A DNA stretch of 64,000 nt from a virus (Duplodnaviria; Heunggongvirae; Uroviricota; Caudoviricetes), in IMG/VR virus record IMGVR_UViG_3300012007_000008, positions 1 to 64,000 of that record. One strand, given 5' to 3'. Positions 17,003 to 63,953 of this stretch are shown here, piece by piece. A model generated the notes under the pieces. It was given only the letters and a program-made list of their open reading frames with translations. It was not told the origin of the DNA and searched no databases. The translations under genes and the position numbers were made by a program. Each line of letters opens with the position of its first letter. The first letter of the stretch is position 1.

Positions 17003-17815
17003 ATGACGTGGAGCTTTTCGCGGCTAAATTCGTATTCGACTTGCCCATATGAATGGCACGAGAAATATCTGTAGAATAGCCAAGGAGAAGGGTCATTTTA
17101 CGCTGATTTCGGGAGTTTGTTGCATAAGTGCATAGAAGTATATGCCAAGGGAGAAGCGCCCAGAGAAATGCTTCCAGACGTCTTTGAAGCGCTTTGGGGC
17201 GAATATATACAGAACGATTTATATAAGGATGGCGAGGTGAATTATGCAAAAGAGGAGGAGTATTACGAACAGGGACTGAAATATCTTCGGGAACAAATTC
17301 TGGATTTATCTTCCTACGAGATTCTTGGTGTCGAAAAGGAAATAAATTTTCAGTTGACGGACGAAGAAGGATCCTATCCGATGATTGGGTACATCGATTT
17401 ACTCTTAAAAGATAAGGAGACAGGTGAGATCACTATCATGGATAATAAATCGGCTTCCATCAAGTTTAAGAAGAACGGAGATCCTTATAAAGCCGACGAA
17501 CAACATTGGTTGGAATTTAAAAGACAGTTGTACCTATATTCAGTTCCGTTCGTTGAAAATGGAGAAGAGATTTCTTATCTTTCTTGGAACCTGTTCCGGC
17601 TTGGAATCGTGAAGACTATACCATGGAACGCGGAGGAGTATAACGAAGCGAAGAAGTGGGCAATAGATACGATTCGCGAGATTGAAATGGAAAAGGAATG
17701 GGGTTATAAAGAAGATTTCTTTTATTGCCATAACCTTTGTTCGCTACGAGGGGAATGTGCGATGAATATTTCTCAAAGACAAAAAGGAGAATTTGATTCC
17801 TACTATGACTATTGA
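17003..17815 (+). CDS. PD-(D/E)xK Cas4/RecB-like nuclease with one in-frame TAG at 17072-17074
   Basis: N-terminus MTWSFSRLNSYSTCPYEW reads in frame through TAG into the 17117 ORF; core IGYIDLL...DNK; C-terminal Cys cluster CHNLC...C. Confidence 0.6.
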
Positions 17816-20800
17816 TAAAGACATACTTTACGATGCTTCAGATCAGGCGTCAAAACGATTAAAGTTCAAGTTTCCTTACGATATTCGTGATTGGATTGAA
17901 AATAGAAACATGGTAATTGAAAATTATCATCGCCATGATGCTCTAAGTAATTTTTATACCACCGCCGATTCAGCTACGACTCCAGAACAGTTCTTAGAGT
18001 ATTCTAAAAATTATGGTTGTAGATTAATGTTTTCAACGCAACATGGATTCCAGGGGCCGTGGATGGAGATCTATGATCTGTGTAAAGATTCCGATTTAAA
18101 ATTCAGATACGGAGTCGAAGCTTATTGGGTAAAAGACAAAGATAGAGTGTTTGTCGAGGAGTATGAAGATAAGAAGCATAATAAAAAGACTCGTGAATTA
18201 AAAGACAGAACAAACTGTCATATGGTGTTAATCGCCAGGAATTATACTGGTGTCCGTAAGCTTAATTATATCCTGTCTGAGGCCGCTCAGAATGGATTTT
18301 ATTACCGCCCTCGTATAGATCTTAACCTATTATTTACATTGTCTCCAGAGGACGTATACGTGACCTCTGCGTGCATTGCAGGATGGCTATATCCAGATGC
18401 GGAAGAGATTTGGCTTAAAATCTGGAAACATTTCGGAGATAGTTTTTTCTTGGAGTATCAGGCTAACAATACGGAAAAACAAAAAGAACTAAATAGTAAA
18501 ATCTATAGAATGTCAAAGCAATTCGGAATTCAAACTATAATTGGACTTGATACTCACTATCTTAATGAAGAGGACAGAATAAAAAGAGAAAATCTTCTGC
18601 AGAGAAAGAAAATTTCCTATCCTGAAGAAGAGGGCTGGTATATGGATTTCCCCAAAGGAACGGTTGTCTTGAAGAGAATGCAGGAGCAAGATGTCCTTCC
18701 TCTTGATGAGATAATTTATTCCATGATGAATACGCATGTTTTTATAAACGGCTGCAAAGATTTTGAGTTGGATACAGATTTCAAAATCCCTATTGAACCG
18801 AAACTTGTTAATTACACATATGACGAAAGATCAAAGGTATTACAGAATATATTGAATTCTCAATATCTTAAAGAACAAAATAAGTCAAAAGAAAGGATTG
18901 ACGGAATCCGCTATGAATTTGGAGAAATATATGGAAGCGGAACTGTCGATTATTTTATAGATAATTATGACATTATTAAACTCGCTACTTCTCCTAAATA
19001 TGGCGGTCAGTTGACTACCACGTCAAGAGGGTCGGCTGCGTCTTACTACTGTAGTAAACTTTTGGGTTTTACGACAATGGATCGTTTTGAAGTTGATGTC
19101 CCGATTTATCCAGAAAGATTTATAACAAAGGATCGAATATTGGCGTCTCATCAAATGCCGGACGTGGATCTGAATACAAGTTCTCAAGAGCCATTCGTAA
19201 AAGCTTCAAGGGAAATAATAGGAGAACATTCATGTTATCCGTTACTTGCAATTGGAACTCTTGGTGAAAAATCTGGATTTAAATTATATGCCAGCATAAA
19301 GGGAATTGAGCCAACAGTTGCAAATGATATTTCTAAATGCATAGATCAGTATAACGAAGCGTTAAAACAAGCAGAAGATGATGAAAAAGAAGATATCCGC
19401 ATCGAAGATTTCATAAAAAATGCTGAATATCTAAAAATATTTAATGAGTCAAAGCCGTATCAGGGAATTCCTGAAAATGCGAAAGTTCATGCTTGCGGAC
19501 ATATTCTCTTCAATGGAAATATTCGTCAGAAGGACGTTGTAGGGTATGGAGATATTCGTTATGAAATAGGGCTGATGAGATGTGTTTCTGAAAGCACCGG
19601 GAAATCTGTGGTTGTTGCGTGTGTTGAAGGAAGTCTTCTTGATAGCTACGGGTACGTAAAGTCGGATTTTCTGATCGTGGATGTTGTCAGCATAATCAAT
19701 AAACTATACTCAAGTATAGGAAAACCAGTTCCAACGACAACAGAGCTTCGCAAGATGGTTGAAAACGATTCTAAGACATGGAAGTTATATGAAATAGGAG
19801 CTACATGTTGTTTGAATCAATGTGAAAAATCTTCTACGACAAAAAAAGCGATGCAGTATAAACCTAAATCAATAAAAGAACTATCGGCGTTTATTGCTGG
19901 TATTAGACCAGGGTTTAAGTCACATATTGATAATTTTCTTGCACGAAAGCCATATACGAACGGAGAACCAGCGATAGATGATTTATTGTCGGGCTGTTTT
20001 AATTATATGATTTATCAAGAGGCGGTAATGAAGATCTTTGCCTATCTCGGAATTCCGATGAAGGATTCTTATGATACGATTAAGAAGATAAGTAAAAAGA
20101 AACTGAAAGGAGCCGCATTAAAACATGTTGAAGATACCTTAAAAGAACATTGGCTTGCGAACATTGGGAATACCGATAATTTTGATCCTGTATATCAGGT
20201 TGTGAAGGACTCGGCTCGCTATGCTTTTAATGCACCGCATGCCTTTGCTATGGCAAACGATAGTTTGTATGAAGCGTGGATGAAAGCTCATTACACAAGC
20301 AAATTTTATGAAGTGACATTAAATCATTATGCTGAAAAAGGAGATAAAAACAAAGTTGCGAAACTGGAAGAGGAAGCCAGACGTGTTTTTGGATATGAAA
20401 TTGGAACGTACGGATATGGACAGGATAATAGTAGGTTTCATGTTGATGATGAGAAGAAAATAATATACCCAAATTTAGGTTCCGTTAAGGGAATCGGAGC
20501 GAAAGCAGTTGAGGACTTATATCAAATATCGAAAAGTGGATATACCAATTTTGTTGATGTTTATATTGCAACTGCAAAAAGCAATGTTAACAAAACCGTT
20601 TTTACAAATCTGATTAAAATTGGATATTTTGAAAAATTTGGGTCTATTAAGAAACTACTTAGAGAAGTAGATATTGTAAATGAATGGAGTGGAGACTCAT
20701 GGAAAGGGCGTAAAGTATTATCTAAATCAGAATTGAATAAATATGATCTAACGGATGAGGAAATTAGAAGATTTGCGAGCGATATAACACCTAAAGGGAA

Positions 20801-21245
20801 TATAAGTAATACAAGATATACGATTACCGATTGGAAGGGAATTGCAAAACTACTTGCATCAAAAGTTCCAGAAGATGAATTCCCTCTTTCTGTTCTGATT
20901 AAATTTCAAATTGAGATCTTGCAATATATTGAATACAAGAATCCGAATTTGCCGAATAATTATGTTGCTATTACTAATCTTGATACTACTTATTCACCAA
21001 AATTTAATGCGTATCGCTTAATGGACGGTAAAATTGCTGAAATGAAGATCCATAAAAGATTGGATTTTCGGAATAAGAACATAAAAAAGTCTTTTGCAGA
21101 TAGCCCAGTGACAAATGGTGATATTATCAGGATCAATAAATGTGATAAAGAGCCTAAAAAGAGAAAAGGGCCTGATGGATGGGTCTCTGTTCCTGGCATG
21201 TTCGACTGGTGGATAGATGATTATTGTATTGTAAATACATTATGA
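17793..21245 (+). CDS. DNA polymerase III alpha subunit (DnaE-type); start may be ATG 17805
   Basis: PHP domain; catalytic core SRGSAASYYCSKLLGFT...PDVDLN. Confidence 0.85.
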   Translation: MIPTMTIDKDILYDASDQASKRLKFKFPYDIRDWIENRNMVIENYHRHDALSNFYTTADSATTPEQFLEYSKNYGCRLMFSTQHGFQGPWMEIYDLCKDSDLKFRYGVEAYWVKDKDRVFVEEYEDKKHNKKTRELKDRTNCHMVLIARNYTGVRKLNYILSEAAQNGFYYRPRIDLNLLFTLSPEDVYVTSACIAGWLYPDAEEIWLKIWKHFGDSFFLEYQANNTEKQKELNSKIYRMSKQFGIQTIIGLDTHYLNEEDRIKRENLLQRKKISYPEEEGWYMDFPKGTVVLKRMQEQDVLPLDEIIYSMMNTHVFINGCKDFELDTDFKIPIEPKLVNYTYDERSKVLQNILNSQYLKEQNKSKERIDGIRYEFGEIYGSGTVDYFIDNYDIIKLATSPKYGGQLTTTSRGSAASYYCSKLLGFTTMDRFEVDVPIYPERFITKDRILASHQMPDVDLNTSSQEPFVKASREIIGEHSCYPLLAIGTLGEKSGFKLYASIKGIEPTVANDISKCIDQYNEALKQAEDDEKEDIRIEDFIKNAEYLKIFNESKPYQGIPENAKVHACGHILFNGNIRQKDVVGYGDIRYEIGLMRCVSESTGKSVVVACVEGSLLDSYGYVKSDFLIVDVVSIINKLYSSIGKPVPTTTELRKMVENDSKTWKLYEIGATCCLNQCEKSSTTKKAMQYKPKSIKELSAFIAGIRPGFKSHIDNFLARKPYTNGEPAIDDLLSGCFNYMIYQEAVMKIFAYLGIPMKDSYDTIKKISKKKLKGAALKHVEDTLKEHWLANIGNTDNFDPVYQVVKDSARYAFNAPHAFAMANDSLYEAWMKAHYTSKFYEVTLNHYAEKGDKNKVAKLEEEARRVFGYEIGTYGYGQDNSRFHVDDEKKIIYPNLGSVKGIGAKAVEDLYQISKSGYTNFVDVYIATAKSNVNKTVFTNLIKIGYFEKFGSIKKLLREVDIVNEWSGDSWKGRKVLSKSELNKYDLTDEEIRRFASDITPKGNISNTRYTITDWKGIAKLLASKVPEDEFPLSVLIKFQIEILQYIEYKNPNLPNNYVAITNLDTTYSPKFNAYRLMDGKIAEMKIHKRLDFRNKNIKKSFADSPVTNGDIIRINKCDKEPKKRKGPDGWVSVPGMFDWWIDDYCIVNTL

Positions 21246-21254
21246 GGTAGTTTA

Positions 21255-21821
21255 ATGTTAAAAGAATTTAGATACTCCGAAACATAGAAAAAATAGATCA
21301 TCAAGAGTATGACTATTCTCCATGACACGAGATAGAAGTGCAACGAGCATATACTTGATTATTTTGACAGGAAAGGAATTCCGCATAAAGAACGTGCGTT
21401 AGAGCAAGGCGATTATTCTTTTATGATTCCTAAAAACGAGAAACTATCTATCTTAAGAGACTTGATATTTGACAAGTAGATAGTTATAGAAAGGAAAAGA
21501 AACCTTGATGAAATCGCCGGGAATCTCACAAATAAAAAAGATAAAAAGACCGGAGAGATATTAGACCATCGAGACAGATTTGAAAAGGAACTAACCTTAG
21601 CTCCGCATAATAAAATACTTCTCATAGAGAATGCAGATTATGAAGACTTGTCAGAAGCCAGATATCGTAGCGAATACAATAATCAGGCTTTTATGGCAAG
21701 CCTTCATACGTTCTGGTGGAGATATAATCTGCCGATATTCTTTATGAAGAATGATAAATATTCTGGAGAATTTATTTATAAAACATTTGGATACTATTTT
21801 AAAACAGTAATTTTGAGGTAA
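21255..21821 (+). CDS. ERCC4/XPF-like nuclease, possible resolvase, with five in-frame TAG codons
   Basis: hand translation gives GDYSF...IVIERKRNLDEIAGNL (ERK motif); missed by the ORF track because of the TAGs. Confidence 0.55.
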
Positions 21822-22922: not shown

Positions 22923-23132
22923 ATGAATTACGATGACGTTAGAAATACGATCATGAAGAGGATTGATGAGAAAAAACAGGCTGTTATAGAACACATAAAT
23001 TCGGCGGCTAAACTCGAAGATTGGGAAGAGATTAAGGATGAGATCGAATTTATCCTCCAGGCCCATGGCGCAGTGATGGTAATCGACCACACACGAGAGA
23101 TCGGAGAAAAAGCTACCGAATCATCCAATTAA
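22923..23132 (+). CDS. hypothetical protein
   Basis: 69-aa ORF, SD AGGAAGGGAAAG. Confidence 0.4.
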   Translation: MNYDDVRNTIMKRIDEKKQAVIEHINSAAKLEDWEEIKDEIEFILQAHGAVMVIDHTREIGEKATESSN

Positions 23133-23157: not shown

Positions 23158-23415
23158 ATGGCAAGAAGAAGAGGAAAGAAGAAGCCCGTCGAGAAGAAGA
23201 ATAATGTTCAGACAATCAAGAAGAAGGGAAACGGATCCGACTTGAAGCCGACACGTTGTTCGCTTTGCCGTTTTGCAACGGATTCGAGAGGCAATGTCTG
23301 TTATGCCAGAGCAAGACTTCTTCCTGAATTCGAGAAGGTAGATTGTGTTCCGGCATTGATTCATTACTCTGATATGCAGCTAGAGACATTGATCTCCGAA
23401 AGGAGGTTTTCATGA
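23158..23415 (+). CDS. basic zinc-ribbon protein
   Basis: MARRRGKKKP...CSLC...C; SD AAGGAGG. Confidence 0.45.
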   Translation: MARRRGKKKPVEKKNNVQTIKKKGNGSDLKPTRCSLCRFATDSRGNVCYARARLLPEFEKVDCVPALIHYSDMQLETLISERRFS

Positions 23416-23663
23416 AGCTGCGGAATTTGGACAAAGATGATCTATACAGATTCTTCAAAGTCGTTGATAAATGCGAGGAAGATGTTGAACTCGTCGTTAA
23501 AGACGAGATGAGACTGAACCTGAAGAGCAAGCTCAGCCAGTTTGTTTCTCTCGTTGGACTTTTCTCACAGGTAAAAGTGCCGGAAATTGAGATTTACTGT
23601 AAGTCTAACCGCGACGTAAACAGGCTGGTTGATTTTCTTGTCGCAGACGGAGGGACGTATTGA
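23412..23663 (+). CDS. hypothetical protein
   Basis: 83-aa ORF, ATGA overlap. Confidence 0.4.
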   Translation: MKLRNLDKDDLYRFFKVVDKCEEDVELVVKDEMRLNLKSKLSQFVSLVGLFSQVKVPEIEIYCKSNRDVNRLVDFLVADGGTY

Positions 23664-23666: not shown

Positions 23667-23900
23667 ATGAATATGCATATCAGGCTGGACTATGAAAATC
23701 CTGACATTTTTAAGGAGTTTTCTTCCGACGTAAATTCATTCAAGTCTGACATTGATGCAAAATCCGGGAGTATCCACGTAGACGCGAAAAGCCTTCTCGC
23801 TATTGTGGCTCTCGGAAAACCTGAATTCGATGTAACTATTGTTAGCTCAGACGCCGCTGAAATAGCGAGGTTTAAGAAAGTGATGGAGAAGTATACGTGA
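23667..23900 (+). CDS. hypothetical protein
   Basis: 77-aa ORF. Confidence 0.4.
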   Translation: MNMHIRLDYENPDIFKEFSSDVNSFKSDIDAKSGSIHVDAKSLLAIVALGKPEFDVTIVSSDAAEIARFKKVMEKYT

Positions 23901-24568
23901 AATTTGAAAACTGGCAGTGCTTCAATTTTATTGGGGCAATACAAGGCGCAAGAAATCCTTTTAACTCTTGGGAGAGGATGGATTCTTATGAACAAAACGG
24001 AAACGATGTTGCCGATTAGATTGAACCTAATAACATAATTATCGGGCCAAATGACCTGAAATTATGTCAGAATTTGTTGAAATCAGCAACAAAAGATCAT
24101 AGAGATTCACATTCAAAATTCTTACGGCAAATTATGGTGAGTGTTGATGTAACAGCGCCACTTTACTTTTTCAAGGAATGGGACACCTACAAGGTGGCGA
24201 CCACAACCAACTCCACGTCAACAATGTGGAAGCTTGCCTCTACCCCTATTACAAGAGAATGCTTTGAATTCGGTGATTATTCAGAAAACGAGGGTCTCGA
24301 TGACTTCTGGAGTGAATTGATAAATTATCTGGAACTTATCAGACAAACATTTAATAAAACAAAAGACAAGGCTGATTGGAAGGAATTGATCCGCCTTTTG
24401 CCGGAATCGTGGTTACAGACCAGACACTGGACTGGAAACTATCAGGTTCTGCGCAACATGTATTTTGACAGACGCAATCACAAGCTCACTGAATGGAACA
24501 AGGATTTTGTCGGTTGGGTTGAGCAACTTCCTTATGCAAAGGAACTCATCATGTACGAAGGAGACTAA
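23897..24568 (+). CDS. hypothetical protein with one in-frame TAG; GTG start
   Basis: SD GGAGAAG before GTG 23897; continues through TAG into the 24074 ORF. Confidence 0.45.
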
Positions 24569-25218: not shown

Positions 25219-25423
25219 GGAGGTTGGTATGGCGGGCATGTCTATGTGTCAAAGTAAAACATGTAAGAAACGTTACTATTGCTATCGTTATAAGGCAGTT
25301 CCAGATAGACTCCAAGGATATTCTGTTGATGATCCGTCAGACCCCAAGGATGGATGTGATTTTTTCTGGGACATGAGACCTTCGGAGGAAAAGAATGACG
25401 GAATACAATTATAGAGGGTTTAA
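25211..25423 (+). CDS. Cys-rich hypothetical protein; terminal TAG read through for 2 codons
   Basis: 67-aa ORF ends TAG AGG GTT TAA. Confidence 0.35.
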
Positions 25424-25608: not shown

Positions 25609-28600
25609 ATGAGGGTAATCAAGAGAGACGGAAGAAAAGTTGAATTTCAAGAAGACAAGGTAAAAATAGCCGTCTTAAAAGCCTTCAAGCAAATAGACGG
25701 AGAAACAACAGAGTATGCCAGAGATAAAGCTGATGCCATAGCCAAATATATAAAAAGCATGGATAAGGATCTGAATGTTGAAGAAATCCAGGATATTGTA
25801 GAATCAAAGCTGATGGCTTGTAACCGTAAAGACGTCGCAAAGGCATATATTATATATAGAAACGACAGAAGCCGAGAGCGTGAGAAGAATAGCTCTTTGA
25901 TGAAAAAAGTTGGCGTAAAGATTAAGGCCGCTAATATTCAGAACCAGAATGCCAACGTTGATGAAAAGTCGTTTGGTGGAAGGATCGGAGAGGCCAGCGG
26001 GGAACTCCTTCGTCAGTATGCTATCGACAATCTTTTATCTGACCTTTCCCGGAATAATCATTTGAACAATGAAATCTATATTCATGACCTAGATCATTAC
26101 GCGGTTGGTGATCATAATTGTTTGTCGATTCCATTTGATAAGCTTTTAGCGGAGGGATTCAATACTAGACAGACAGACGTCCGTCCGGCTCAATCGGTAA
26201 ATACGGCTTTTCAGTTGGTTGCCGTGATCTTCCAGCTACAGTCTCTTCAGCAATTTGGCGGAGTATCTGCCACGCATATAGATCACACAATGGTGCCTTA
26301 TGTCAGGAAGAGCTTTTATAAGCATTATGTCACCGAATATTTGAAGCGCACAAAAGAGTTTCTTGATCTGGATCTGATGAATTATCTCTTTGATACGTAT
26401 GAAGATGAAATCGGGGTTGTCAGGAACAGATTCGACGATTGGGTCGAAGAACATAAAGACGAATTCACTGAGAAGACCGGACTTAGATTTGAGGATTTTA
26501 CTCTCGACAATAAAAATGGTCTTAATCAAGAGCTATTCCAAGCAGCTTTATTCGACACGATCAATGAAACATATCAGGCAGTTGAAGGAATGTATCACAA
26601 CCTAAAAATATTTGGGCGACTCAATAGTGATGTTGAGAACATAGCTGCCTAAACGGGGGAACTCTCACGGAGACAATCCCGTGCTAAATTTGCATCGTTA
26701 TAAAGCGGATACCATTTGAAATATTATAACGATACACTAAACGCCTAACGACTATCCACATGAAACGTGGAGTACACCCAAGCGGGTGGAAATGGCAGCC
26801 TCCTATTTTATAGGATGAAGATATAGTCTAATCTTTATGACAACATAAAGAAGTTCATAAGAGAACTGCATAGGAGTAGCGAACCTATGTGAATATTAAT
26901 GAAATACATTGCAAAGCAGATCAGGGAATCAATTGCCATTCACTTCTATTAATTACGGTACATGCATAACCCCGGAAGGGCGTATGGTAACAAAAGCAAT
27001 TTTAGATGTTTCAATTAAGGGTATTGGTGTGTTGCATAAAACGTCGATCTTCCCATGTGGAATATTCCAGTGTATGAAAGGTGTAAACCGTAAACCGGGT
27101 GATCCAAATTATGATCTGTTTAGGTTGGCGCTTAAATCAACGGCGCGACGTCTCTATCCAAATTATGCCAACGTAGACTGGTCTGGAAACGCCGGATACG
27201 ATCCGAATGATCCGAAAACTTATTTCTCAACGATGGGTAGGTGTAAGCTACAGCTCATCTAAAATCTTTTGAACCCCGCCCGGGGGTGTCGCAAAAGCGG
27301 CTAACGGTTAGGACTCATTGAGTTGAGACCGTGCTAAATAATCAAGAATGGTAAGTAACTAGGAGATGGTATTTTGGTTATTTACAAAATTACAAATATT
27401 ATAAATGGTAAAATTTATGTTGGTAAAACAACAAGATCTCTGAAAGATAGATGGAATCGACATATATACGACGCACTTTCGAATCGTCTTGATACACATT
27501 TTAGTAGAGCAATACGAAAATATGGCCCAGAAAACTTTTAGACTTAGATAATTGATTCTGCAAAATCAGATGAAGAGTTATCTAAAAAAGAAAAATACTG
27601 GATAAATTATTTTAACTCGTGTGAGAACGGATACAATGAAACGATAGGTGGGGACGGTGGAAATACATATATGTCGAAGACCACAGAAGAGATGGATAAA
27701 ATAAAACAGAAGATACGTTCTACGAAAATCGGAAAAGATAATCCAATGGCAAGACCAATCAAATTATTAAGCATGAAAACAGGCGAGGAACTTCATTTTG
27801 GGAGTGCAGCGTAGGTAAGAGATTATTTTGGTGAATCAAACCATAATTTTGTCACCAGAAGAGTAAAACGTTAGATTAAATATTTGTTTAAAGGCGAATG
27901 GAATATAGCATACGAAGAAGATGAATACCCTACGGATGTTAGGTTTGATAAATCAATAAGAAAAAGTTGCCACATCCTTGTATAGGATTTGTATACTGGA
28001 GAAGTCGGTGAATTTGTAAGTTATGCATCTGCGGAAAGACATTTTGGCGTTCGAAACAAAAAGTTTAGTGGAAAAGCTTACAAACACACGTGTAAAGAAT
28101 TTGTTGTTGAAAGTAGATATAAAATTACCATTCTTGATTAAAAGTGTATCGACTATCCCTGATGAATGTATGGGAGTAGGGCTGGAGATAGGCACCAGCG
28201 ATGTTTTAGGAAACGAAGCGTCTGAAAACCGAAGCGGAAGACTGCGGAGAAATCCTGCGAAAGCATAAATGAATTAACATTTAGTAGAAGATATAGTCAG
28301 TTCCTCTGGCGATAGAGGAGGGAAACGTGTAGAACTGTGAATGGGGCAGACATCAACGCCGAACCTGGAACAAACCCTCAAACGAAAGACGGGCGCGGTA
28401 ACATCTGTCCTGTGACAATTATTATGCCTACATTGGCCATGGAGGCGTCTGGAGAAGTAGGCGACAAGGACATCAATTCTTTCATGGAAATTCTCGACCA
28501 GAAAATCCATGAGGCAAAAGATATGCTCATTGAAAGGTATGAGTACATCTGTAGTCAGTCGCCGGATTCGGCTAAATTCATGTATGAGAATGGTACAATG

Positions 28601-29323: not shown

Positions 29324-29829
29324 GATACGCGGGAATAAACCCGGCCGATATTGTCTGCGGAACTGGCGTAGGTGTTTCTGTTTATGTTCAGGGGTGCGAT
29401 TTTCATTGCAAAGGATGCTTTAATCCCCAAACTTGGAGTTTCAATGGGGGAAAAGTCTGGAACGAAGAAATGAATCGTGAGTTTCTGAATGGTATAAACA
29501 AACCTTATATTAAGAGGCTTTCTATCTTAGGAGGAGAGCCTCTTCATCCGAAAAATCTCAAAGGTGTTGACGGATTGATAAACGAAGCAGATAATGTTAA
29601 ACCTCTGACTAAATGGATCTTCTCAGGATATACGTGGGAAGAGATAATGTCTGACGATTCAGAAGCCGGAGAATTGAGAAAACACATCATCAGTAAAATA
29701 GATTATCTGATTGAGGGGCGATTTGAACAAGAGCTTAGAGATGTAACTCTGAAGTTCCGCGGCTCTTCAAATCAGCGCATTATCGATGTAAAGAAAACTT
29801 TAGAAAAAGGAGAAGTGGTGACGATATGA
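29320..29829 (+). CDS. nrdG: anaerobic RNR activating protein NrdG
   Basis: GCDFHCKGCFN CxxxCxxC radical SAM motif; directly downstream of nrdD. Confidence 0.85.
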   Translation: MRYAGINPADIVCGTGVGVSVYVQGCDFHCKGCFNPQTWSFNGGKVWNEEMNREFLNGINKPYIKRLSILGGEPLHPKNLKGVDGLINEADNVKPLTKWIFSGYTWEEIMSDDSEAGELRKHIISKIDYLIEGRFEQELRDVTLKFRGSSNQRIIDVKKTLEKGEVVTI

Positions 29830-30410
29830 TCGAAACAATCAGAAAAGAGATTCTTGCCGGACTTTTAATCGGAATCGGCGGATTCGCGTTTCTTTCGGTT
29901 GATAACAAGTACGTAGGGGCATTCCTGTTCTCGGTTGGACTGATTTCCGTAATCTTGCTCGGCGCGTTTCTATATACAGGAAAAGTCGGCTACGTCAGGA
30001 CAATTCACAGCGCGGTGCTAATGCTTCCTATGTGTTTACTGAATATGATAGGCGCGGTGTTGTTTGGCATTGTTACACAACCTTTGGTTAGAGATCAGGC
30101 AATACGATCTGTCGGCAATAAACTTGCGAAAGAACCGCTAAATGTCTTTATATCAGCCGCGATTTGTGGAGCACTGATCTACCTAGCGGTGGAACTGTTT
30201 AAGAGAAGCAAGAATATACTGGCGGTCATCATTCCGGTATTTGCGTTTGTGGCCGCCGGGACTGACCACTGTATAGCAAATGCGTATTACTTCGCTGCGG
30301 CGGGAGAGTTTACTTCAGACGCTTTGCTTTATTTGGTTATATGTATCTTTGGGAACGCGACCGGATCTCTGGTTGTTTCACTTCTTCAGGGAGAGAAGAA
30401 ATAGCCATGA
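29826..30410 (+). CDS. polytopic membrane protein
   Basis: 5-6 predicted TM helices; ends AAA TAG CCA TGA. Confidence 0.5.
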
Positions 30411-32243: not shown

Positions 32244-32861
32244 ATGAAACACAGGATGACGGCAACGGCCTTTGCTATGGTCATTATCGCGGCATCTCTG
32301 GTATTCAGGACAGGGGCATAGGGCAACAAGCCTAAGATGCTCCTGGCCGGAAGTTCATCGATGCGAAGGTGGAAAGATGCGAAAACGGTCTTCAGTGATT
32401 TCAAGGTAATCAATAAAGCCATCGGCGGAACAACGGTCACTGACTGGCTGAGGCTATATAAGAAAAGGATCGTAGATCAGAAACCTGACGTGATCCTTTT
32501 TTATTGCGGCGCGAACGACATCCAGGACGGTGGCGGGATTACGGGCTTAGAGAACGCCGAAAATACGAAAGTATTATTAGAATCAATCAGAAAGAAATTG
32601 AAGAAAACGAAGATTTTCTATATTTCGATCAACCATTGCATAAGAAATCCTCATGCGTGGGGAGAAATAGATGCATCGAATGAAGCAATGAAACGGTATT
32701 GCGAAAAGAAAAAGAATATCTACTACGTGGATATAGTGGCTGTTTCCTTGCTTCCTGACGGAACACCGAACCCGGCATTGTTTAGGGAAGACGGGATTCA
32801 TCCGACAAAACAAGGGTTTAAGGTGTGGAATAGAGTTATAGGTAAAAAGGTAAATCGTTAA
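32244..32861 (+). CDS. secreted SGNH/GDSL-family hydrolase with one in-frame TAG at 32319
   Basis: signal peptide; blocks LLAGSSS, CGANDI, DGIHPT. Confidence 0.55.
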
Positions 32862-43810: not shown

Positions 43811-44584
43811 GTGACAAATGCTGAAAAATTTATATCTACGCTAAAAGAGATGAATAAACTCTTTAAGTAGGATATTGCGAAAGGCCATAAGTGGTGCTAC
43901 ACAAACAAGACATCTCGGAAGGCGAAGACTTTTGATAACGCCCTGAAGTACGGGAAATACTGGTGTAATTGCGTCGATGGCGTTCAATGGGCGCTTAAGA
44001 GATCGGGACTTGCGGAGTCAGATGGTCTCGCCTGGTACGGTTCAGAAGGATCCGGCATGAACTGGATCGGGTCTAACTCTAAGAAGAATGCCGAGAAATA
44101 CCTGAAAGTGAAGAAAATCGGGAACAAGACGGTCGGACAACTAAAGGCTTCCGGCCAACTTCGTCCCGGCGACATCGTAACCTATATGACGTTTAGCCAT
44201 ACAAACGTATTTCTGGGCGGTAATAAATGGTTCGACTCAGGTCACGCCACTTGTACTCAATCAACGGGAGATGGCGTTCCGTATAAAAAATCTGGCTGGA
44301 TCTGTACGAGAAAACTCGACAATTATAGGGTGGGTTACATCCTGAGAGTAAAAGAGACGGTCTCCTATCGCGTTAGAGTTGGAATCTATTCAGTAAGAGA
44401 AAATGCGGACGCTAAGCTCGCAAGTTTGGCGGCGGTAGGGTTAGACGGCTTCCTGGAATCTCAGAAGGATGGGCTTCATGTGTATAGTGGAAAGACTTAC
44501 TCAAAGAAGCCTAACGCTCAGGCTCGAATGAAGGAACTGGCAGATAAGAAGATTGCCGCCGTGATCGAGACTGTGAAGGTATAA
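43811..44584 (+). CDS. endolysin: Cys/His peptidoglycan hydrolase (CHAP/Amidase_5-like) plus C-terminal SPOR domain; one in-frame TAG at 43868
   Basis: SD AAAGGAG, GTG start; GHKWCY...CNCVDGVQWAL, FDSGHATC; SPOR-like YRVRVGIYS...AKLASLAAVGLDGFL...HVYSG. Confidence 0.6.
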
Positions 44585-46823: not shown

Positions 46824-46933
46824 ATCAGTTTGGAAATATTATAGCCATTGAAGATGATGGAACTCGGATACAGATTCGCGGCGATGACGGAAGAATATAT
46901 GCCGGTTGGACTAAGGACGTGGTTCTACTGTGA
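46760..46933 (+). CDS. small ORF (57 aa) overlapping the end of the 46287 gene
   Basis: MSDYKEPRIGQR...; lies at the left border of the TnpB element. Confidence 0.2.
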   Translation: MSDYKEPRIGQRCFFAFRAGINQFGNIIAIEDDGTRIQIRGDDGRIYAGWTKDVVLL

Positions 46934-47031
46934 GTCTAATTTGTGGAAATACTGGCGCTCCAGTTGGTAAAAACTGTGTTTTGTCCACGCTACAGAAGAA
47001 AAATATTCAATATCCCTGGATAGGTGGTAAT

Positions 47032-51899: not shown

Positions 51900-52048
51900 A
51901 CAAGAGAGCCGGGAGACTGGCTCTCTTTGTAACGGAAGGAGACAAAATGGCACAAGAAGCAATACAGGAAAACCTGTGGGGATGTTTATAGAAGTTGCGC
52001 CAGATAGAAATCGATGGTATAATTGAACCAGAAGCGGCGCAAACATTA

Positions 52049-53233
52049 ATGGCAAGTAAGAAAGAGAGGATCCTTAAGCAATACCCACCTAGGCAAGCAG
52101 CGGATGGTTCATGGTACGTAAACATCAGGTTTGCCCCAGGGCCAAACGGCAGGAAGGCAATAAGGAAGGGGAGTAAAGAAACCCTTGAAAAGGCGATTAT
52201 AGAATTCGTCGGGGAAAACTTGAAGCCAAAAGAAAAGAAAGGCACTCATTTAAGACTCAACTATAAGGATGCTTTTGAAAGATGGATCAGAGCACAACAG
52301 TACAGAAACAAGAATACAGAGGGTAGGAATCGCCGGGAATATCGCAGGTTTTTTGAGAAATTTGAATTAGGCCGTGAAATAGCTAAAATGGACATAAGGG
52401 CGATCACGTCCTTCCAGATCGAGCAGTTCATGAGCCAAGCGATCCAGGAATATGACCTGACGGCAAGAAAGGCGCTGGAAAACTACAGGATGTTTTTTGA
52501 GTTCGTGTACCGTCAGGCTGTGGTAGACAGGGTCGTTAAACCTGATGAAAATCCTTGTACGTATATCATCGAAAATAGATTCCTCCAGTTCGGAAGGTCT
52601 GAGTCCGATAGGAAAGAAGAATCAAGGACTATTGATCCTGACACAATGAGCATCCTTGACATAGCAATCAGAAAGGACCATGAGAGAAAAGAGGATTACA
52701 TGCCACCATACGCCTGTGAACTTGCGTTTCTGACTGGCATGAGGGTCGGGGAACTTAGCGGATTAACCTGGGACCACATCGATATGGACAAAGGCGCTAT
52801 CTATATAGTTCAGAGCATGAAATACGACTTGGCTACCAAAGAGTACTACATCTCTTCAACGAAAAACAAAAAGAAACGTGTGTTCCCTATCACGGATGAT
52901 ATTCGCGAACTCCTGGAAAGGATTATGTCAATTCAGGATAAGTATGGCAAAACAGAAAACTATGTCTTTTCTACGGCAAAGAAAGCATCAACGAATAGAC
53001 AGCTTAGTGACTACCTTATGAACAAGAGGAAGCAGTACGGTATCACGATTCCGGTAAGCATTCATGCAGCGAGAAGGACGCTTAACAGCAACATGGCGGC
53101 CCAGGGCGTGTCCGTGGACCTCAGGGCGTCCCTCCTCGGTCATATCCCGAGGGTAAATGAAACGAATTACACTTACGATTTGGTATCCTTGGAGGAAAAA
53201 ACAAAAGTGGTTGCAAAAGCTGGGAAACGGTGA
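52049..53233 (+). CDS. tyrosine integrase (second copy)
   Basis: TGMRVGEL box I; HAARRT (HxxR); LLGH; catalytic Tyr in NYTYD. Confidence 0.8.
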   Translation: MASKKERILKQYPPRQAADGSWYVNIRFAPGPNGRKAIRKGSKETLEKAIIEFVGENLKPKEKKGTHLRLNYKDAFERWIRAQQYRNKNTEGRNRREYRRFFEKFELGREIAKMDIRAITSFQIEQFMSQAIQEYDLTARKALENYRMFFEFVYRQAVVDRVVKPDENPCTYIIENRFLQFGRSESDRKEESRTIDPDTMSILDIAIRKDHERKEDYMPPYACELAFLTGMRVGELSGLTWDHIDMDKGAIYIVQSMKYDLATKEYYISSTKNKKKRVFPITDDIRELLERIMSIQDKYGKTENYVFSTAKKASTNRQLSDYLMNKRKQYGITIPVSIHAARRTLNSNMAAQGVSVDLRASLLGHIPRVNETNYTYDLVSLEEKTKVVAKAGKR

Positions 53234-53589: not shown

Positions 53590-54696
53590 TTACCGCTTTC
53601 TCAGCATTTCCACTGAACTCTTCAGTTTCTTGATCGCATAATCCAAATCTTCCTGCGTAGTATCTCTGCCTAACGTCAGGCGCAGAGAGCCGTTTGCTTC
53701 TTCTTCACTCAGCCCTATCGCGGTAAGGACATGGCTTGGTTCTCCACTTCCGGTCTCACAGGCCGATCCTGAAGAGCAGTAGATGTCGTACATAGAGAGC
53801 AGTTCAACCAGTTCTTCTCCGCGGATCCCGTCAAAGACGAAGCTGGCGTTGTTTGGCAACCTGTATACAGGATCTCCGGTCAGCTTACTGCCAGGGATCT
53901 CGGTTAAGACATTCTTGATCAGGTGTGACCTTAGTTCGATCAACCGTGGGGATTCAGTATGGATGGCGGCACAGGATATCTCAGCCGCCTTAGCCATCGC
54001 AACGATCCCGAATACGTTCTCGGTTCCGGCGCGGAGTCCTCGTTCCTGACGACCGCCCTGAAGAAGAGGATGTAGGTCGGTATCCTTTCTGACATACAGG
54101 AAGCCGACGCCCTTAGGCCCGCCGAACTTATGAGCGGAGGCAGAGATAAAGTCTACCTTGATCTCATTTACGTTCAGGATCTGATGTCCATAATACTGCG
54201 TCGCGTCAGTATGGAATTTAACGCCAAAATCGCGGCATAGAGCGGCGATCTCCTTTATAGGTTCCACAGTACCTATTTCGTTGTTGGCCGCCATAACGGA
54301 CACGAGAGGCGTGTATACGTGGCTCTCAATCGTCCTCTTTACATCGTCAGGATCTACTAGACCAGTCTCACTGACGGGTAGCGAATATATCCCTACTTCA
54401 CACGCTGGCATAAGTATCGCGTGGTGTTCGATTGGCGTAGTAATCACGTTGTCGAATGACTGGATCACTGTGTTGTTCGCCTCAGTAGCCCCTGAAGTAA
54501 AGAATATCTCTTCAGGCTCAGCACCGAGAGTATCCGCGATTGTCTACCGCGCTTGTTCTATAGCCGCCCTGGCTTCAATCCCCGGCACATAAGCAGCGGA
54601 AGGATTGTGCCAGTGTTCATATAGATACGGCAGACCCGCCTCTATCGCTTCTGGATAAGGACGGGTAGTTGCCGCATTGTCTAAATATACGTTCAT
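53590..54696 (-). CDS. cysteine desulfurase (IscS/NifS/DndA-like, class V aminotransferase) with in-frame TAG at 54544-54546
   Basis: rebuilt N-terminus MNVYLDNAATTRPYPEAIEAG...EQAR[TAG]TIADTLGAEPEEIFFTSGATEANN; PLP region SASAHKFGGPKGVGFLYV. Confidence 0.75.
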
Positions 54697-54731: not shown

Positions 54732-56585
54732 TCAGTTTCGCCTGTTCCTAATCACGTAAGCGAGAACCACCAACACCGCGAAAGAGAGCAGTAGGGCGCA
54801 TACAAACCTCATGATCGGAGAGTCATCGCCGGTCTTCGGTATCACGACAAGCTCTTCCGTGGCGGCCTTGATGGCCACTTCGGTGTCTCTGTTGGCACCT
54901 TTAACTTCGCTGATCTTCTTGGTTCTATGTGTTTCTTCGGTCTTTTTTCCCCGGCTTTCGCCCATGGCTCCGCCATCCTGTTTCTTCGTTTCTTCTTCCG
55001 GCGGAAGAGTTTCGTTAGGCGTTGTTTCCTTGGCCGGGATATAGACGGGGACATAGGACGGGTTATTGACTACGGGGATAGGAGAGGTAGGCGTTTCTGT
55101 CACGTTAACTTCTGTAGGCAAGATAACCGTTTCAGTTTCCGTGGTGAGAGATATCTGAGACTCTGTGATTGATATCTGAGGCTCTGTGATTGATATCTCA
55201 GTCTCTCTGAGCGATATTTGGGTCTCAGGTATAAGTTCAGAGATCGGTGGATCTGTCTCTTCCGTTTCGACAAGTTTTGGTTCCGTTTCTATCACGGGCT
55301 GTTCTGTTTCAATAACCGTCACGGGCTGTTCTGTTTCAATAACCGTGATATCAGTTTCGATTAACGGGATCTCTGTTGGTTGTTCGGTTTGAACCGGCTC
55401 AGTCTGCCTCGGCTCAGTATCAGGGATCACAATCTCTTCGGTTTCTATGATCGGAATGATTTCTGACTGTGTTTCCGACTGCTCTGAGATAAGTTCCGAT
55501 TCCTCCGACTGTGTTTCCGGTTCTTCCGACTGTGTTTCCGGTTCCGGTTCAGGGATCCGGGTAGATCCTTGGTAAGGCCACATATGTCCCTCAGCGAGAG
55601 TAGAGATATTCTGACCGAATAAACAGCCATTCGTATTGCCGCCGTTGATCTGAATATCGGCGTAAGGCGCGAGGACACACCCGATCTCTGGCGTCAGTTC
55701 CGTAGGTATCACTACTGTATTAGCGTTCGGATAGACGATACAGATCGGTTCGCTGCCGCCGTTTTCTTCACCCTGGGATAGCCCTACAACCTGAGGGTTC
55801 AGTACGGTTCCTGAGTCGAGTACGTTTATAATAGTACCTTCTCCAGTCGGGTTCCCGGTAAGCCGGATTTTTACAAAATTTCCCTGAACTAGAAGATTAG
55901 TGATAGTACCGCGCTGGATCTCTATTTCTTGCCAGTTCCAGTCTGGCTTAACAGTTGGTGCGAGAGAAGATAGGTTCTGAATACGATAGACTTCAGATGT
56001 TGCCGCCTCGTAGATCCGCGCCCAGTCCACGTAATTGTCCGTAACGATGATCGGATCGTCATGGTTGTACCAGTTCATCCCGTTCAGGGTGGTTCCGTCG
56101 ACAGTATTGGAAGAGCCGACGTAGAGTGGGATCCCGCTGTATTTGGATCTTCCGTTAGGGCCTCCTGGCTTACTCACGTATCCGGCGATGTAGCTCGGAG
56201 CGACAGTATAGGGTGAGTCTGCGAAGTTGTTATAGTTCCCGGACAGGTCGCCCTGAACTAGAAGATTGCCCATACAGTGCTGGTTGATGTCGGCGTTGCC
56301 TAAGGCTATCACACCGTAGTAGTTCATGAGATAGTCGAGAGAGTAGTCCTGAAGAGTAGGATTATCAGGAGTTTCTTCAATCAGATTCTCTGGTAATGTT
56401 TCTTCTTCGGGAGGGGTTTCGTAGTAATTATCGGGAACGATTTCTTCGTAAGGCTCAGTCTACGCCGCTTCGGTTACATACGGAATCGCAACCTTGAACA
56501 TCAGGATCAGGGTCAGGATACCGATTAAACAGATCACCGCAGACGGCACGATTTCCTTCAGGAATTCGGTCACCTTCTTTATCAT
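54732..56585 (-). CDS. LPxTG-type (IPKTG) cell-wall-anchored surface protein with Thr/Glu/Gln-rich repeats and in-frame TAG at 56460-56462
   Basis: SD AAGGAGGTGA; signal peptide MIKKVTEFLKEIVPSAVICLIGILTLILMF; C-terminal IPKTG then hydrophobic stretch then RNRRN; DNA tandem repeats 55140-55560. Confidence 0.65.
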
Positions 56586-56997: not shown

Positions 56998-58224
56998 TTA
57001 TTCTGTACAAGAAGCAGGTCTTGTGCCAAGATTGGTTAGATCGATCTCTTCTAGACATAGTTCGTCTTTAAGAGCGAGGTATTGGTCTTCATAGACCCAG
57101 ATGTCTCCGTAGGAATAGTGGGTTTTGGCTTCAACCGCATATTGGACTGAACCTCCATACTTATCAATAGCCACCTTTAAGTATGGTAGTTTTTCTATAA
57201 ATTTACCATCGTGAAAACGTAACACTGGGCGTAGTCTTTTGTTCTTCCACGGTTCAACATCTTTCCCATGTGTTTCTTCGTCATAGTAGAATAAGAATCC
57301 TTTCATATGATGGTATATGTTCTTACTATTACACGCGTGTTCAATACTTCTTGGTGACACATTTGTATATTCTGAAGCGGCGTCACTATTCTGAAATGTT
57401 TGAATTAACTTCCCGGACATATCGTAAACACAGACCTTTTTCCGATTGGGATTTTTCTTTGGACCAAATTTTCTATTGATAAGCTTTTGAACGGCTTCCT
57501 CACTGTAGTCCGGTTCGAAAAACCAGAAAAACCCATACGCAGATATGCTAGTGCCACAACAGCATTGTCTGATTTGTTCGTATTCTTTTGGCGTATAACC
57601 ATCGATTTTATGAAGGTCGTCATATATTTGTATTAGTGTGCCATCATAATCAACTTTATACACTTTAGGATATTTTTTAACAGTATTTCCTGGAAATCCT
57701 GTATATGGTGGCATCTTGTCAACTTTTTCAAAAGACCACTGAAAACCATGAGCTTGTTTCCGATTCTTACTAGCTGCTTCACCAATCTTTTTCCCTTTTA
57801 TATGAAGAGTTTCCGCCGCCTCACTAATTGTACCCCATTCTTTGACAAAATCTCCCTACCAAGTATACTGGAATACGGATTTACTCATAGGGTGTTCTAC
57901 TCCATATAATCCATTTCCTGTGTCTCCACCTTTTGCAATATTGTATGCGATATCTGGATTTCTTAGGTCAAATTTGGCAATTAAATAAATCTATATCATC
58001 TTGGCTTGTTCTTTCTCCAGATTTTCAATAAGAATAACATGATCAAAGTTATCCCAGCCGTATTTTTGAATTGCTTTCCAAAAGTGATGAGAACCTACGT
58101 ATTGTCTTCCATTTGAACTCCATCTTTGTTTTGTGTTCTTTGAAATTCCGACATAATATTTCCCGTTAATTTTATTTCTGTGATAGTAAACACACCACCT
58201 ATTTTCACTAATATAATGTTCCAT
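56998..58224 (-). CDS. free-standing GIY-YIG homing endonuclease with two in-frame TAG codons
   Basis: N-terminus WCVYYHRNKINGKYYVGISKNTKQRW...KYGWDNF; reads through TAG into the NUMOD-like C-terminal ORF (56998-57714); RBS region is the AATGAAAGGATTATATTATG motif. Confidence 0.6.
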
Positions 58225-58466: not shown

Positions 58467-58862
58467 TCATTCCTGTTTCGGCGGCTCGGTAGGTAATTCA
58501 ACAATTTTATTCGCAATTTGCGCTATTACCCCGTTTCCATTATCGGCGCGATAGGCCTACCACATCTCGTGAAAAACTTCTCTTTCCTCCGGAGAGTAGA
58601 AACCTTTCTAAACACAGGATTTGTAATTGTCCAGTAACATCATGCGTGCAATTCCAAGAGTCAATCTATCATTCGCTTCATCTCTGATACGTCGCTTCTC
58701 AGCCTCTGCGTCTTCTTTTTGTTCACGTTCCCTACGATATTCTCTGTTCTCGTCTGAAAATTTTTGCAAGCGGTGAGACAAATATCCCGTCAAAACAGAA
58801 ACAACAATTCCTACAATCGTTGTTAAAATTGCATATATCTCTGGTGTAATAACCATCTTCAT
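58467..58862 (-). CDS. membrane protein (131 aa) with two in-frame TAG codons
   Basis: SD GAAGGAGG; MKMVITPEIYAILTTIVGIVVSVLTGYL TM; TAG at 58608-58610 read through to TGA at 58467. Confidence 0.45.
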
Positions 58863-60088: not shown

Positions 60089-60099
60089 GGAAATGGCAG

Positions 60100-63274: not shown

Positions 63275-63285
63275 TGAATCAATGA

Positions 63286-63630
63286 AATTCCAGAATAGAG
63301 CCTATAGATGTGTCTGACCAATATACGAAAGTAACGACAAACGTATCATTTTCCGCATTACGCGCATATAAGTTTGGAAGATTGATACTATTGGACGTTG
63401 CTTTTGACTGTTCAAAGATATCAGGAGATACAAACCTCTTCTCACCAAACAACAATTCTGTGACACCAGTTGCTTCAACTTATATAGCTTTTGGAACGGG
63501 GCAGCATTCTTCGTTTTCAAATAAGAACTGTTATTTTACATATTATCAAGGTTTTTTCATGGTTGGCAATGGAGCGGGCGAAACGGGAGTGAGCTATAGA
63601 GTTCATACGTCATATGTCTCGCTTCAATAA
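63286..63630 (+). other. silent cassette 5
   Basis: NSRIEPIDVSDQ...YVSLQ then TAA-repeat. Confidence 0.45.
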
Positions 63631-63953
63631 ATTCCAGAAAAATGGAAGCATCGTTTCTCTATAAAGCCAACAGATCAACTGGTTCTTAGAGAGTGGTTTC
63701 TTTTATTGTTAATGCCGGAGTAAGTGATACAGATAAGAAAGTATATATGTTCTTTTCACACGGAAATGGTCATGCTACTATCGGATCTGTAATGTGCGTC
63801 GGAAAATATCCAACTGGCCATTGTTCTTTAGTATCAATGGTTTACAACAATGCATTTTCTGTTACAGCAACTTACGATGGAGGAACTACCTTATCTATTT
63901 CTACTACACCCTGGGACAGAGTATTTCTATTATCCCCGTATTATTGTGCATAA
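63630..63953 (+). other. silent cassette 6 (contains in-frame TAG)
   Basis: NSRKMEASFLYKANRSTGS[TAG]RVVSF...SPYYCA then TAA-repeat. Confidence 0.45.

Follow-up and report, generated by a model that had tools for sequence, protein, structure and literature searches.

The window analysed here, the whole stretch of 64,000 nucleotides formed by positions 1 to 64,000 of IMG/VR virus record IMGVR_UViG_3300012007_000008, is best explained as the non-structural part of a tailed phage of about 175 kb (174.9 kb) from a gut metagenome. This phage uses UAG as a rare sense codon, not as a gene terminator, and comparison of its TAG-bearing genes with their homologs indicates that the codon is probably (at about 0.8) read as glutamate by a suppressor tRNA. 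The first-pass annotation of this DNA had recognised that TAG has been reassigned from stop to sense, and this stands, as domains cross the TAG codons, no gene needs TAG as its stop and the codons are conserved in relatives. Its choice of translation table 15, in which TAG means glutamine, has to be given up: every test that separates glutamate from glutamine favours glutamate, and the suppressor tRNA found in a relative is of the glutamate type. The window phage is a TAG-recoded phage that departs from code 15 on three counts, as the residue aligned with TAG is not glutamine, the codons that interchange with it are not CAG or CAA, and the relative's tRNA does not have a tRNA-Gln identity.

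TAG as a sense codon

Genes were modelled from codon usage trained on long open reading frames (ORFs), the best set of genes being chosen by weighted interval scheduling. When TAG is taken as sense, the model holds 120 genes, 65 ending in TAA and 55 in TGA, and not one of the 120 needs TAG as a terminator. Re-calling the genes in this way, as had been proposed in the first-pass annotation, raises coding density from 0.872 to 0.911 over the whole window (+3.9 points); the rise is from 0.851 to 0.903 in the 17-64 kb region (+5.2 points), and the first 17 kb are unchanged. The gain is real, but at or below the cut-offs in use for such increases (5-10%, with 10% quoted in the recoded-phage literature). 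TAG is used sparingly, at about 1.9 per 1000 codons in the window, and the real genes of the 17-64 kb region contain about 20-35 in-frame TAG codons. It is the only stop codon found in frame inside genes, TAA and TGA never being so; TGA and TAA were both rejected as sense codons, since gene-model score and coding density drop when either is read through.

All ten of the 'genes' that end in TAG under table 11 are the front portions of longer ORFs. In nine of them the next stop lies far downstream or immediately behind, and the tenth (25229-25414) extends merely two codons to a TAA. Pfam or PHROG matches cross TAG codons in at least six genes, with homolog alignments that are continuous on both sides. 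Conservation across TAG had been claimed for the Cas4-like nuclease, for the cysteine desulfurase and for the GIY-YIG homing endonuclease of an nrdD intron (HEG1) with its five TAG codons, and it is borne out in all three by domains that span them (Table 1), those of HEG1 at 27539 and 27545 lying within the GIY-YIG domain. The ERCC4-type nuclease, said to have five TAG codons, has four. A TAG is present at 43868 in the supposed endolysin, but the identity of this protein comes down to a SPOR domain and a weak PHROG match. The SGNH hydrolase also has its TAG, at 32319, but an ATG five codons past it is a possible alternative start, making this a weaker case of read-through; the same applies to the TAG codons of the integrase (a tyrosine recombinase) and of a few small ORFs, which sit upstream of possible alternative starts. 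In the public gene calls for the source contig, translation already continues past the TAG codons, and for the tyrosine recombinase at 51947..53233 the public call is an identical product of 428 amino acids.

The relatives of this phage in IMG/VR are contigs of 39-205 kb, mostly 115-205 kb, the closest being L001, whose DNA polymerase III (Pol III) alpha subunit is 71% identical and certain of whose genes are 92-95% identical. TAG closes 10-30% of the genes in ten relatives with the standard code, as against 0-1 genes in the window, L001, L002 and L015, and we conclude from this difference in stop usage that the sub-clade of the window phage gave up TAG as a stop. TGA ends roughly a third to half of the genes in these four, its share among the stops of the standard-code relatives being roughly 5-35% and mostly under 20%. 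The former TAG stops of the sub-clade seem to have become TGA rather than TAA.

Three near-terminal TAG codons (at 7742, 25412 and 30402) are backed by a second stop, a TAA or TGA that follows after 0-2 codons. The TAG directly followed by TGA at 7742 had been taken for the sole candidate terminator of this kind; the tandem is there, but it is not alone. In the L001 orthologue of the membrane protein encoded at 29826-30410, a TGA stop stands exactly at the codon that is TAG at 30402 in the window.

Under the standard code, the genes with internal TAG codons would have to be decaying pseudogenes or split accessory and selfish genes. Many of them are in fact homing endonucleases or otherwise accessory, the gain of 3.9 points in coding density is modest, and some of the codons precede alternative starts. 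Damage, however, would not be expected to interrupt frames by TAG only and never by TAA or TGA, nor to remove TAG from the ends of genes in a group of phages whose standard-code members use it there. It would not be conserved either: codon 11 of the ERCC4 nuclease is TAG in L001 and L121 and codon 14 in L121, codon 41 of the phrog_6721 protein is TAG in the L001 orthologue (95.5% identical as a protein), and codon 78 of a second homing endonuclease (HEG2) is TAG in L116-L119, all of these being contigs from other samples. Neither the strict purine at the position following TAG nor the match of TAG to glutamate columns, both described below, is expected of random damage, and we consider this explanation very improbable.

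An artefact is more improbable still. Although the genome is known from a single sample, so that assembly or sequencing errors or a chimeric contig might be suspected (errors of assembly had been raised in the first-pass annotation), the window agrees base for base with three assemblies (ENA ERZ964371 k127_265126, ERZ28658117 WOLF17-1 scaffold_18 and a Logan contig of the same sample), and the same TAG codons recur in the contigs from other samples listed above.

TAG codons occupy glutamate positions

If table 15 applied, a Gln-type suppressor would insert glutamine at TAG, as happens in the crAss-like, Lak and phAss-1 phages. This is the sole TAG reassignment reported for phages; glutamine and glutamate swap easily, and several TAG sites in the ERCC4 and HEG1 homolog alignments fall in columns with a mixture of E, Q and K. 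Already in a first codon-level comparison with relatives, though, it was Glu and Asp, not Gln, that stood opposite the window TAG codons.

Five lines of evidence, independent of one another, bear on this, the first of them being the conserved columns. Codon 27 of the ERCC4 nuclease (21333) is the glutamate of the D-[ST]-R-E motif, with E in 104 of 104 homologs, the phage's own entry left out. We take this glutamate to be catalytic from its invariance in the family and from what is known of XPF and Hef; a phmmer search of the PDB with the ERCC4 protein gave no match. The column of codon 11 has E in 82 of 90 homologs, that of codon 14 has 45 E and 16 Q, and that of codon 75 is a mix of D, E and K. 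At codon 78 of HEG2 (57993), E is found in 116 of 120 homologs. The four other entries are written Q, but three of them (P0002, P0052 and P0065) have TAG at the DNA level and the fourth (P0001) is a 97%-identical copy of the window's own gene. With a profile of 35 family sequences this codon aligns with E75 of I-TevI, the metal-binding catalytic residue of GIY-YIG nucleases; in single-sequence alignments with I-TevI, phmmer ended short of the site and MAFFT placed the TAG under E73. HEG1 has E in 105 of 120 homologs at codon 58 and 94 E plus 18 D at codon 147, its other TAG columns being variable. Relatives have D, E, R or L at codon 36 of the Cas4-like nuclease. In all, five window TAG sites have more than 75% E and none falls in a conserved glutamine column. 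Table 15 would therefore place glutamine at the invariant active-site glutamate of two nucleases, and in the case of HEG2 would do so in at least four lineages. Public protein sets (P0121, P0001, P0002, P0052 and P0065) do show Q at TAG sites, active-site residues included.

Interchange between TAG and sense codons in close relatives gives the same answer. The ERCC4 gene of L121 is 81% identical to that of the window at the nucleotide level, with TAG common to both at codons 11 and 14. Where one has TAG and the other a sense codon, the latter is GAA or GAG (GAR) in four cases out of four and CAA or CAG in none (window/L121: TAG/GAA at codon 27, GAG/TAG at codon 31, GAG/TAG at codon 50 and TAG/GAG at codon 75). 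Most codon changes at 81% identity are synonymous, and CAG or CAA would therefore be expected opposite TAG if it meant glutamine.

Two contigs in which TAG is about 10 times commoner than in the window, at 19-21 per 1000 codons and at least as frequent as GAG, extend this comparison. The first, L118 (Logan SRR30476282_183070; 21 TAG per 1000 codons), is a relative of the cassette at 53-59 kb of the window. The interchanges between it and the window are 11 GAR and 2 CAA. Its cysteine desulfurase has 12 TAG codons, 10 of which align to window residues, six of them opposite Glu codons and none opposite Gln; two correspond to glutamates, those of EH and GTEN, that are conserved in desulfurases of solved structure. 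In its adhesin, TAG is found at the Glu positions of T-E repeats and in an acidic run (YD-x-EDE-x-D-x-DD-x-KD). The L118/L119 orthologue of the window's 131-residue protein has D and T at codons 85 and 102, and its own TAG codons stand opposite GAA, GAG and CGT in the window. The second heavy user, L116 (Logan ERR11637140_82687), is an unrelated, siphovirus-like contig whose coding density rises from 0.45 to 0.97 with TAG as sense. The TAG codons of its endonuclease fall on the catalytic Glu, on four further columns dominated by E and on one mixed E/D/Q column. The cassette of desulfurase, adhesin and endonuclease (53.5-59.5 kb in the window) is shared with L118, and may be a module exchanged among phages in which TAG means glutamate.

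These comparisons were quantified in two ways. Profile log-odds summed in the manner of Codetta over 11 window sites gave +16.2 for E, followed by Q at -2.9 and K at -4.1. Pairwise comparison under an empirical substitution model covered 41 sites, namely 13 window TAG codons against relatives and 28 TAG codons of relatives against the window, and gave log likelihoods (lnL) of -89.3 for E, -108.6 for Q and -110.1 for D. The model was estimated from the same alignments, made by tblastn of the modelled window proteins; in an all-against-all BLASTP of read-through ORFs from the window and 21 relatives, the matches were mostly to off-frame and antisense ORFs of conserved genes, which obscured the rest. 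By lnL as by profile scores, E is favoured over Q by about 19 nats. As a control, codons of known meaning were scored as if unknown. At least 99.6% of the draws of 13 real CAG or CAA sites came out as Q, lnL(E)-lnL(Q) having a median of -10.6 and a 95th percentile of about -5, and draws of GAG sites had a median of +7.3. The 13 TAG sites score +5.15, inside the range of GAG and outside that of CAG and CAA. The method can thus tell E from Q, and by its measure the TAG sites resemble Glu codons; draws of real Gln codons never score as they do. Taken together with a relative's suppressor that is not of the Gln type (see below), these results make table 15 a poor candidate, and we give it little credence.

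A suppressor tRNA of a probable glutamate type in a relative

In L001 a tRNA with a CUA anticodon is encoded at 22965-23037, just downstream of the nrdD/nrdG region of that contig. Its D stem consists of U10-A25, U11-A24, C12-G23 and U13.G22 with a 9-nucleotide D loop, the variable loop has 4 nucleotides (GAAC) and the acceptor stem starts with a C1-G72 pair. The 'augmented D helix' determinants of Escherichia coli tRNA-Glu are U11-A24, U13.G22 with A46, and a missing nucleotide 47. An exact search with the 15-nucleotide D arm of the L001 tRNA, followed by ARAGORN, returned 15 IMG/VR tRNAs: 13 of the tRNA-Glu type, a single tRNA-Gln(CUG) and the suppressor itself. In related phages, tRNA-Gln genes differ from it in the D arm and start with U. 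BLASTN of the L001 tRNA against 50,697 phage records found only T-arm fragments of unrelated tRNAs and is uninformative on identity. From its shape, from the identity rules of E. coli tRNA-Glu and from the D-arm matches, a glutamate identity of this tRNA seems probable. Pyrrolysine was considered because ARAGORN labels CUA tRNAs 'Pyl', and was rejected, the cloverleaf being an ordinary one of the Glu type and the TAG columns being glutamate.

Glu-type suppressors are not confined to L001. A pattern search for the Glu-type D arm together with CUA and the T loop identified a second one on a 163-kb IMG/VR contig, and 44 more tRNA(CUA) loci with a Glu D arm (among L122-L170) were found in JGI metagenomes and in contigs of metagenome-assembled genomes from GTDB. 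This set includes Ruminococcus, Lachnospiraceae and Clostridia bins and horse faeces; some of its members may be eukaryotic or archaeal. In two of the loci (L132 and L138) the Glu-type tRNA(CUA) lies beside a homolog of the window gene at 23412-23663. The bacterial amidotransferase GatCAB, which converts Glu to Gln on tRNA, recognises U1-A72 on tRNA-Gln, and the Glu-type suppressors seen have C1-G72 or G1-C72 instead. We think it likely that a lineage of large gut phages, along with at least two other lineages of heavy TAG users (L116 and L118), reassigned UAG to glutamate by means of suppressors derived from tRNA-Glu.

Several observations weigh against glutamate as the meaning of TAG. About half of the window TAG sites are in variable columns that carry little information. 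Homing endonucleases often decay, so that damage might in principle account for a nonsense codon at a catalytic residue. In the window and in 15.5 kb of flanks (8.5 kb upstream and 7 kb downstream) of the genome of about 175 kb there is no tRNA gene. The L001 tRNA has C and not the near-universal U at position 33 (loop CCCUAAC), although the suppressor of L120 has a normal U33, and the assignment of its identity is based on shape and on rules drawn from E. coli tRNA-Glu. One TAG of L118 is at the well-conserved glutamine of AIQKYGW (Q in 108 of 116), and for two L118 TAG codons the window has CAA.

These L118 codons leave some ambiguity, with room for mixed or lineage-specific decoding in which glutamine has a minor share. 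Such a mixture of Glu and Gln could arise from two suppressors, from partial amidation by GatCAB or from meanings that differ among relatives. The few TAG codons of L118 at Gln positions beside many at Glu positions would fit it, as would the three tRNA(CUA) genes of phAss-1, and the genome has been seen only as the window and its flanks. Gln is nevertheless opposite TAG in just 2 of the relatives' 28 sites, about as would be expected of a pure Glu codon, the probability of Q given E being 0.043 in the same alignments, and the first pair of the suppressors is not the one that the amidotransferase requires. Ambiguous decoding is in our view unlikely, if less so than table 15, and glutamate is retained as the preferred meaning of TAG.

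Sequence context and distribution of TAG codons

The base following an internal TAG is A or G in 34 of 34 cases in plausible genes, against a purine background of 0.66, or 0.70 after GAG (p of about 5e-7 to 5e-6). Those followed by a pyrimidine are the terminal codons at 7742 (T) and 30402 (C) and one TAG in a dubious ORF. Work by Bossi and by Miller and Albertini in 1983 is said to have established a 3' purine as the context of efficient amber suppression. The context being this classical one, it seems that TAG is decoded in competition with release factor 1 (RF1). No 3' purine bias is found after TAG in L116 and L118, as if the constraint had been lifted in these heavy users.

TAG codons also tend to lie near the 5' ends of genes. 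Thirteen of 20 are in the first quarter of their gene, and in the seven genes with a single TAG it is always within the first 20% of the ORF, three of these starts being uncertain. A TAG placed in this way could act as a translational gate.

At the scale of the genome, no modelled gene in the first 17 kb or so has an internal TAG, just as the first-pass annotation had it, and the TAG-free stretch extends about 8.5 kb upstream of the window, making some 25 kb in which no gene has one; the upstream flank (L024) contains a single near-terminal TAG in a plausible gene. The division into early genes in the standard code and late recoded genes that had been suggested is partly borne out: the block would fit it, but the window holds no recognisable structural genes that could show the late half, and many genes between 17 and 64 kb are free of TAG. 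The latter include those for Pol III alpha (1146 codons), the NrdD exons, NrdG, a Thg1-like enzyme, an RNA ligase and TnpB. Genes with TAG encode nucleases, homing endonucleases, cell-wall and surface proteins, a recombinase and a cysteine desulfurase (Table 1). As they are scattered among TAG-free genes in this region, the distribution of TAG is gene-by-gene and not that of a clean code block.

Table 1. TAG codons and TAG-bearing genes of the window. Positions are those of the window; codons are numbered from the start of each gene.
Feature	Position	Strand	TAG (codon)	Remarks
TAG-free block	1..16966	+		about 30 small genes and genes for integrase-like, GmrSD_N/DUF262, Sak4-like ATPase, SSB, DnaB and primase proteins
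Tandem stop TAG TGA	7742..7747	+	7742	end of gene 7148-7747; functional under either decoding; next base T, a poor suppression context
Cas4-like PD-(D/E)XK nuclease	16967..17815	+	17072 (36)	PDDEXK_1 at residues 14-264
ERCC4-type nuclease	21255..21821	+	21285, 21294, 21333, 21477 (11, 14, 27, 75)	ERCC4 domain at residues 24-176, phrog_3490 at residues 13-183; codons 14, 27 and 75 inside
phrog_6721 protein	23897..24568	+	24017 (41)	PHROG match at residues 2-219
Near-terminal TAG (TAG AGG GTT TAA)	25412..25423	+	25412	61-codon ORF 25229-25423 with strong ribosome-binding site
GIY-YIG homing endonuclease (HEG1), second nrdD intron	27374..28141	+	27539, 27545, 27812, 27872, 27983 (56, 58, 147, 167, 204)	GIY-YIG at residues 2-88, spanning codons 56 and 58
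Near-terminal TAG (TAG CCA TGA)	30402..30410	+	30402	membrane protein 29826-30410; next base C
SGNH/GDSL hydrolase	32244..32861	+	32319 (26)	TAG right after predicted signal peptide; Lipase_GDSL_2 at residues 52-193
SPOR-domain cell-wall protein	43811..44584	+	43868 (20)	SPOR at residues 185-251; weak PHROG endolysin match
Tyrosine recombinase	51947..53233	+	51989 (15)	Phage_integrase domain; downstream start possible
Cysteine desulfurase-like protein	53590..54696	-	54546-54544 (51)	Aminotran_5 at residues 3-353
LPxTG-anchored adhesin-like protein	54732..56585	-	56462-56460 (42)	TAG past signal peptide; pAdhesive_15 domain
Second GIY-YIG/NUMOD1 homing endonuclease (HEG2)	56998..58224	-	57993-57991 (78), 57858-57856 (123)
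131-residue protein, function unknown	58467..58862	-	58610, 58559 (85, 102)

We propose the following scheme. An amber-suppressor tRNA(CUA) derived from tRNA-Glu, probably encoded elsewhere in the phage genome as it is in the closest relative, would read UAG after being charged with glutamate by the host glutamyl-tRNA synthetase (GluRS). As it would not have the U1-A72 pair needed by the amidotransferase, the glutamate would remain glutamate. The suppressor would have to compete with the host's RF1, so that internal TAG codons would be tolerated only before a purine, and genes would close with TAA or TGA, the few TAG codons at gene ends having another stop behind them. The presumably early block, with its small genes and replication genes, would avoid TAG entirely and so keep to the host's code, and TAG codons at the 5' ends of accessory genes might keep these silent until the suppressor is present. 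We infer the phage's own tRNA, the charging enzyme, the competition with RF1 and the role in timing, and hold the charging route and the timing with less confidence than the glutamate reading. With its few TAG codons, purine contexts only and back-up stops, the window phage would be at an early stage of a change of code.

Relation to known recoding and suppression systems

Stop-codon recoding is well described in gut phages, as TAG-to-Gln, TGA-to-Trp, or TGA-to-Gly with hosts that use code 25. Only the TAG-to-Gln and TGA-to-Trp forms were observed by Borges et al. The phage phAss-1 carries the three tRNA(CUA) genes mentioned above. No report of TAG-to-Glu in phages was found in the limited library of literature that was surveyed. 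As far as we could find, TAG as glutamate with TAA and TGA as stops corresponds to no NCBI table and has not been described in viruses or bacteria. To our knowledge, TAG is glutamate only in peritrich ciliates (NCBI table 30), where TAA is reassigned too.

The window phage resembles the code-15 gut phages (crAss-like, Lak, Garnet/Agate-type and phAss-1) in having TAG as a sense codon in a host with the standard code, in using TAA and TGA as stops, in that members of its clade encode a tRNA(CUA) and in that part of its genome is free of the recoded codon. It differs from them in the amino acid, glutamate and not glutamine, and in the suppressor seen in its relative, which has a tRNA-Glu body; in its light use of TAG (1.9 per 1000 codons, a gain of 3.9 points in density) in purine-following contexts only; and in the location of TAG in accessory and nuclease genes, with no late structural block visible in the window. 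With code 30 it shares UAG as glutamate, read there too by a suppressor resembling tRNA-Glu. The ciliate code, however, is eukaryotic and nuclear, reassigns TAA along with TAG and leaves TGA as the sole stop, whereas here the change takes place in a bacteriophage, only inside the infected cell, and TAA is the commonest stop. Amber suppression as in E. coli supE or psu of phage T4 is likewise a contest between a CUA tRNA and RF1 that goes better with a 3' purine. It arose from laboratory mutations that rescue nonsense mutants, unlike the present case, in which the codon is native to wild-type genes and includes catalytic residues.

A fourth comparison bears on why glutamate should have been reached at all. 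TAG-to-Gln and TGA-to-Trp, considered the only two forms of phage recoding, have been explained by the readiness of the glutaminyl- and tryptophanyl-tRNA synthetases (GlnRS and TrpRS) to charge suppressor tRNAs. Many Firmicutes are without GlnRS and make Gln-tRNA indirectly, by a non-discriminating GluRS and GatCAB, and a CUA tRNA in such a host would receive glutamate first. For the window phage this pathway is pure inference, no synthetase or amidotransferase gene being seen in the window. The indirect pathway and the lack of GlnRS may be why phages of Firmicutes reach glutamate and those of Bacteroidetes glutamine. The host of the window phage is probably a Firmicute of the class Clostridia, since the ERCC4 homologs that carry source names come from Coprococcus and Oscillospiraceae and the phage encodes LPxTG and SPOR proteins.

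If the glutamate reading is correct, it adds a third type of recoding to those of phages and means that another synthetase can be recruited. It would also link the GlnRS status of the host to the new meaning of a captured stop codon, a question that can be tested. Pipelines using table 15 would be writing glutamine at active-site glutamates, affecting function and structure prediction and proteomic searches. Amber suppressors of the Glu type that work in Clostridia could be an aid to genetic-code engineering.

Gene content of the window

The window has a base composition of 40% G+C, with nearly all genes on the + strand. PHROG and Pfam scans identified a replication module (Sak4-like ATPase, SSB, DnaB, primase, Cas4-like nuclease, a Pol III alpha of 1146 amino acids and the ERCC4 nuclease), an anaerobic ribonucleotide reductase (NrdD/NrdG), a Thg1-like enzyme, an RNA ligase, a TnpB-like transposase, two tyrosine recombinases, numerous small genes of unknown function and, on the minus strand, the cassette of cysteine desulfurase-like protein, LPxTG adhesin and homing endonuclease. 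No structural (late) gene was recognisable in the window, and no release-factor gene was among the PHROG matches in the 0-59.5 kb covered by that scan.

Two introns split the nrdD gene (25609-29323) into three exons. The first intron clearly belongs to group I (Rfam RF00028, 70 bits, 26594-26850); the second, which spans about 27263-28336 and houses the GIY-YIG endonuclease, has a weak group I match only (28084-28319, 20.7 bits). Over the middle exon (about 26851-27262) the window shares 88-90% identity with L001 and L019.

A TnpB-like gene of the IS200/IS605 OrfB family (46930-48123; match to phrog_506 with E = 2e-134) is free of TAG, and its homologs adjoin Glu-type suppressors in L126 and L167. 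The genes for the Thg1-like tRNA-His guanylyltransferase (32875-33681) and the RNA ligase (36550-37467) are a few kb apart, which suggests a function in tRNA repair or maturation and may be of relevance to a phage in need of a special tRNA.

Three tyrosine recombinase genes are found at 4805-5782, at 51947-53233 and, just past the window in L022, at about 65870-66925; only the middle one has a TAG, at codon 15. Inside the TAG-free block, two adjacent paralogs of unknown function (5797-6465 and 6493-7146; 222 and 217 amino acids) are clearly similar to each other, and the gene at 8211-9944 encodes a protein of 577 amino acids in which a sigma-factor-like N-terminal part (phrog_1740, a weak match) is joined to a GmrSD_N/DUF262 domain.

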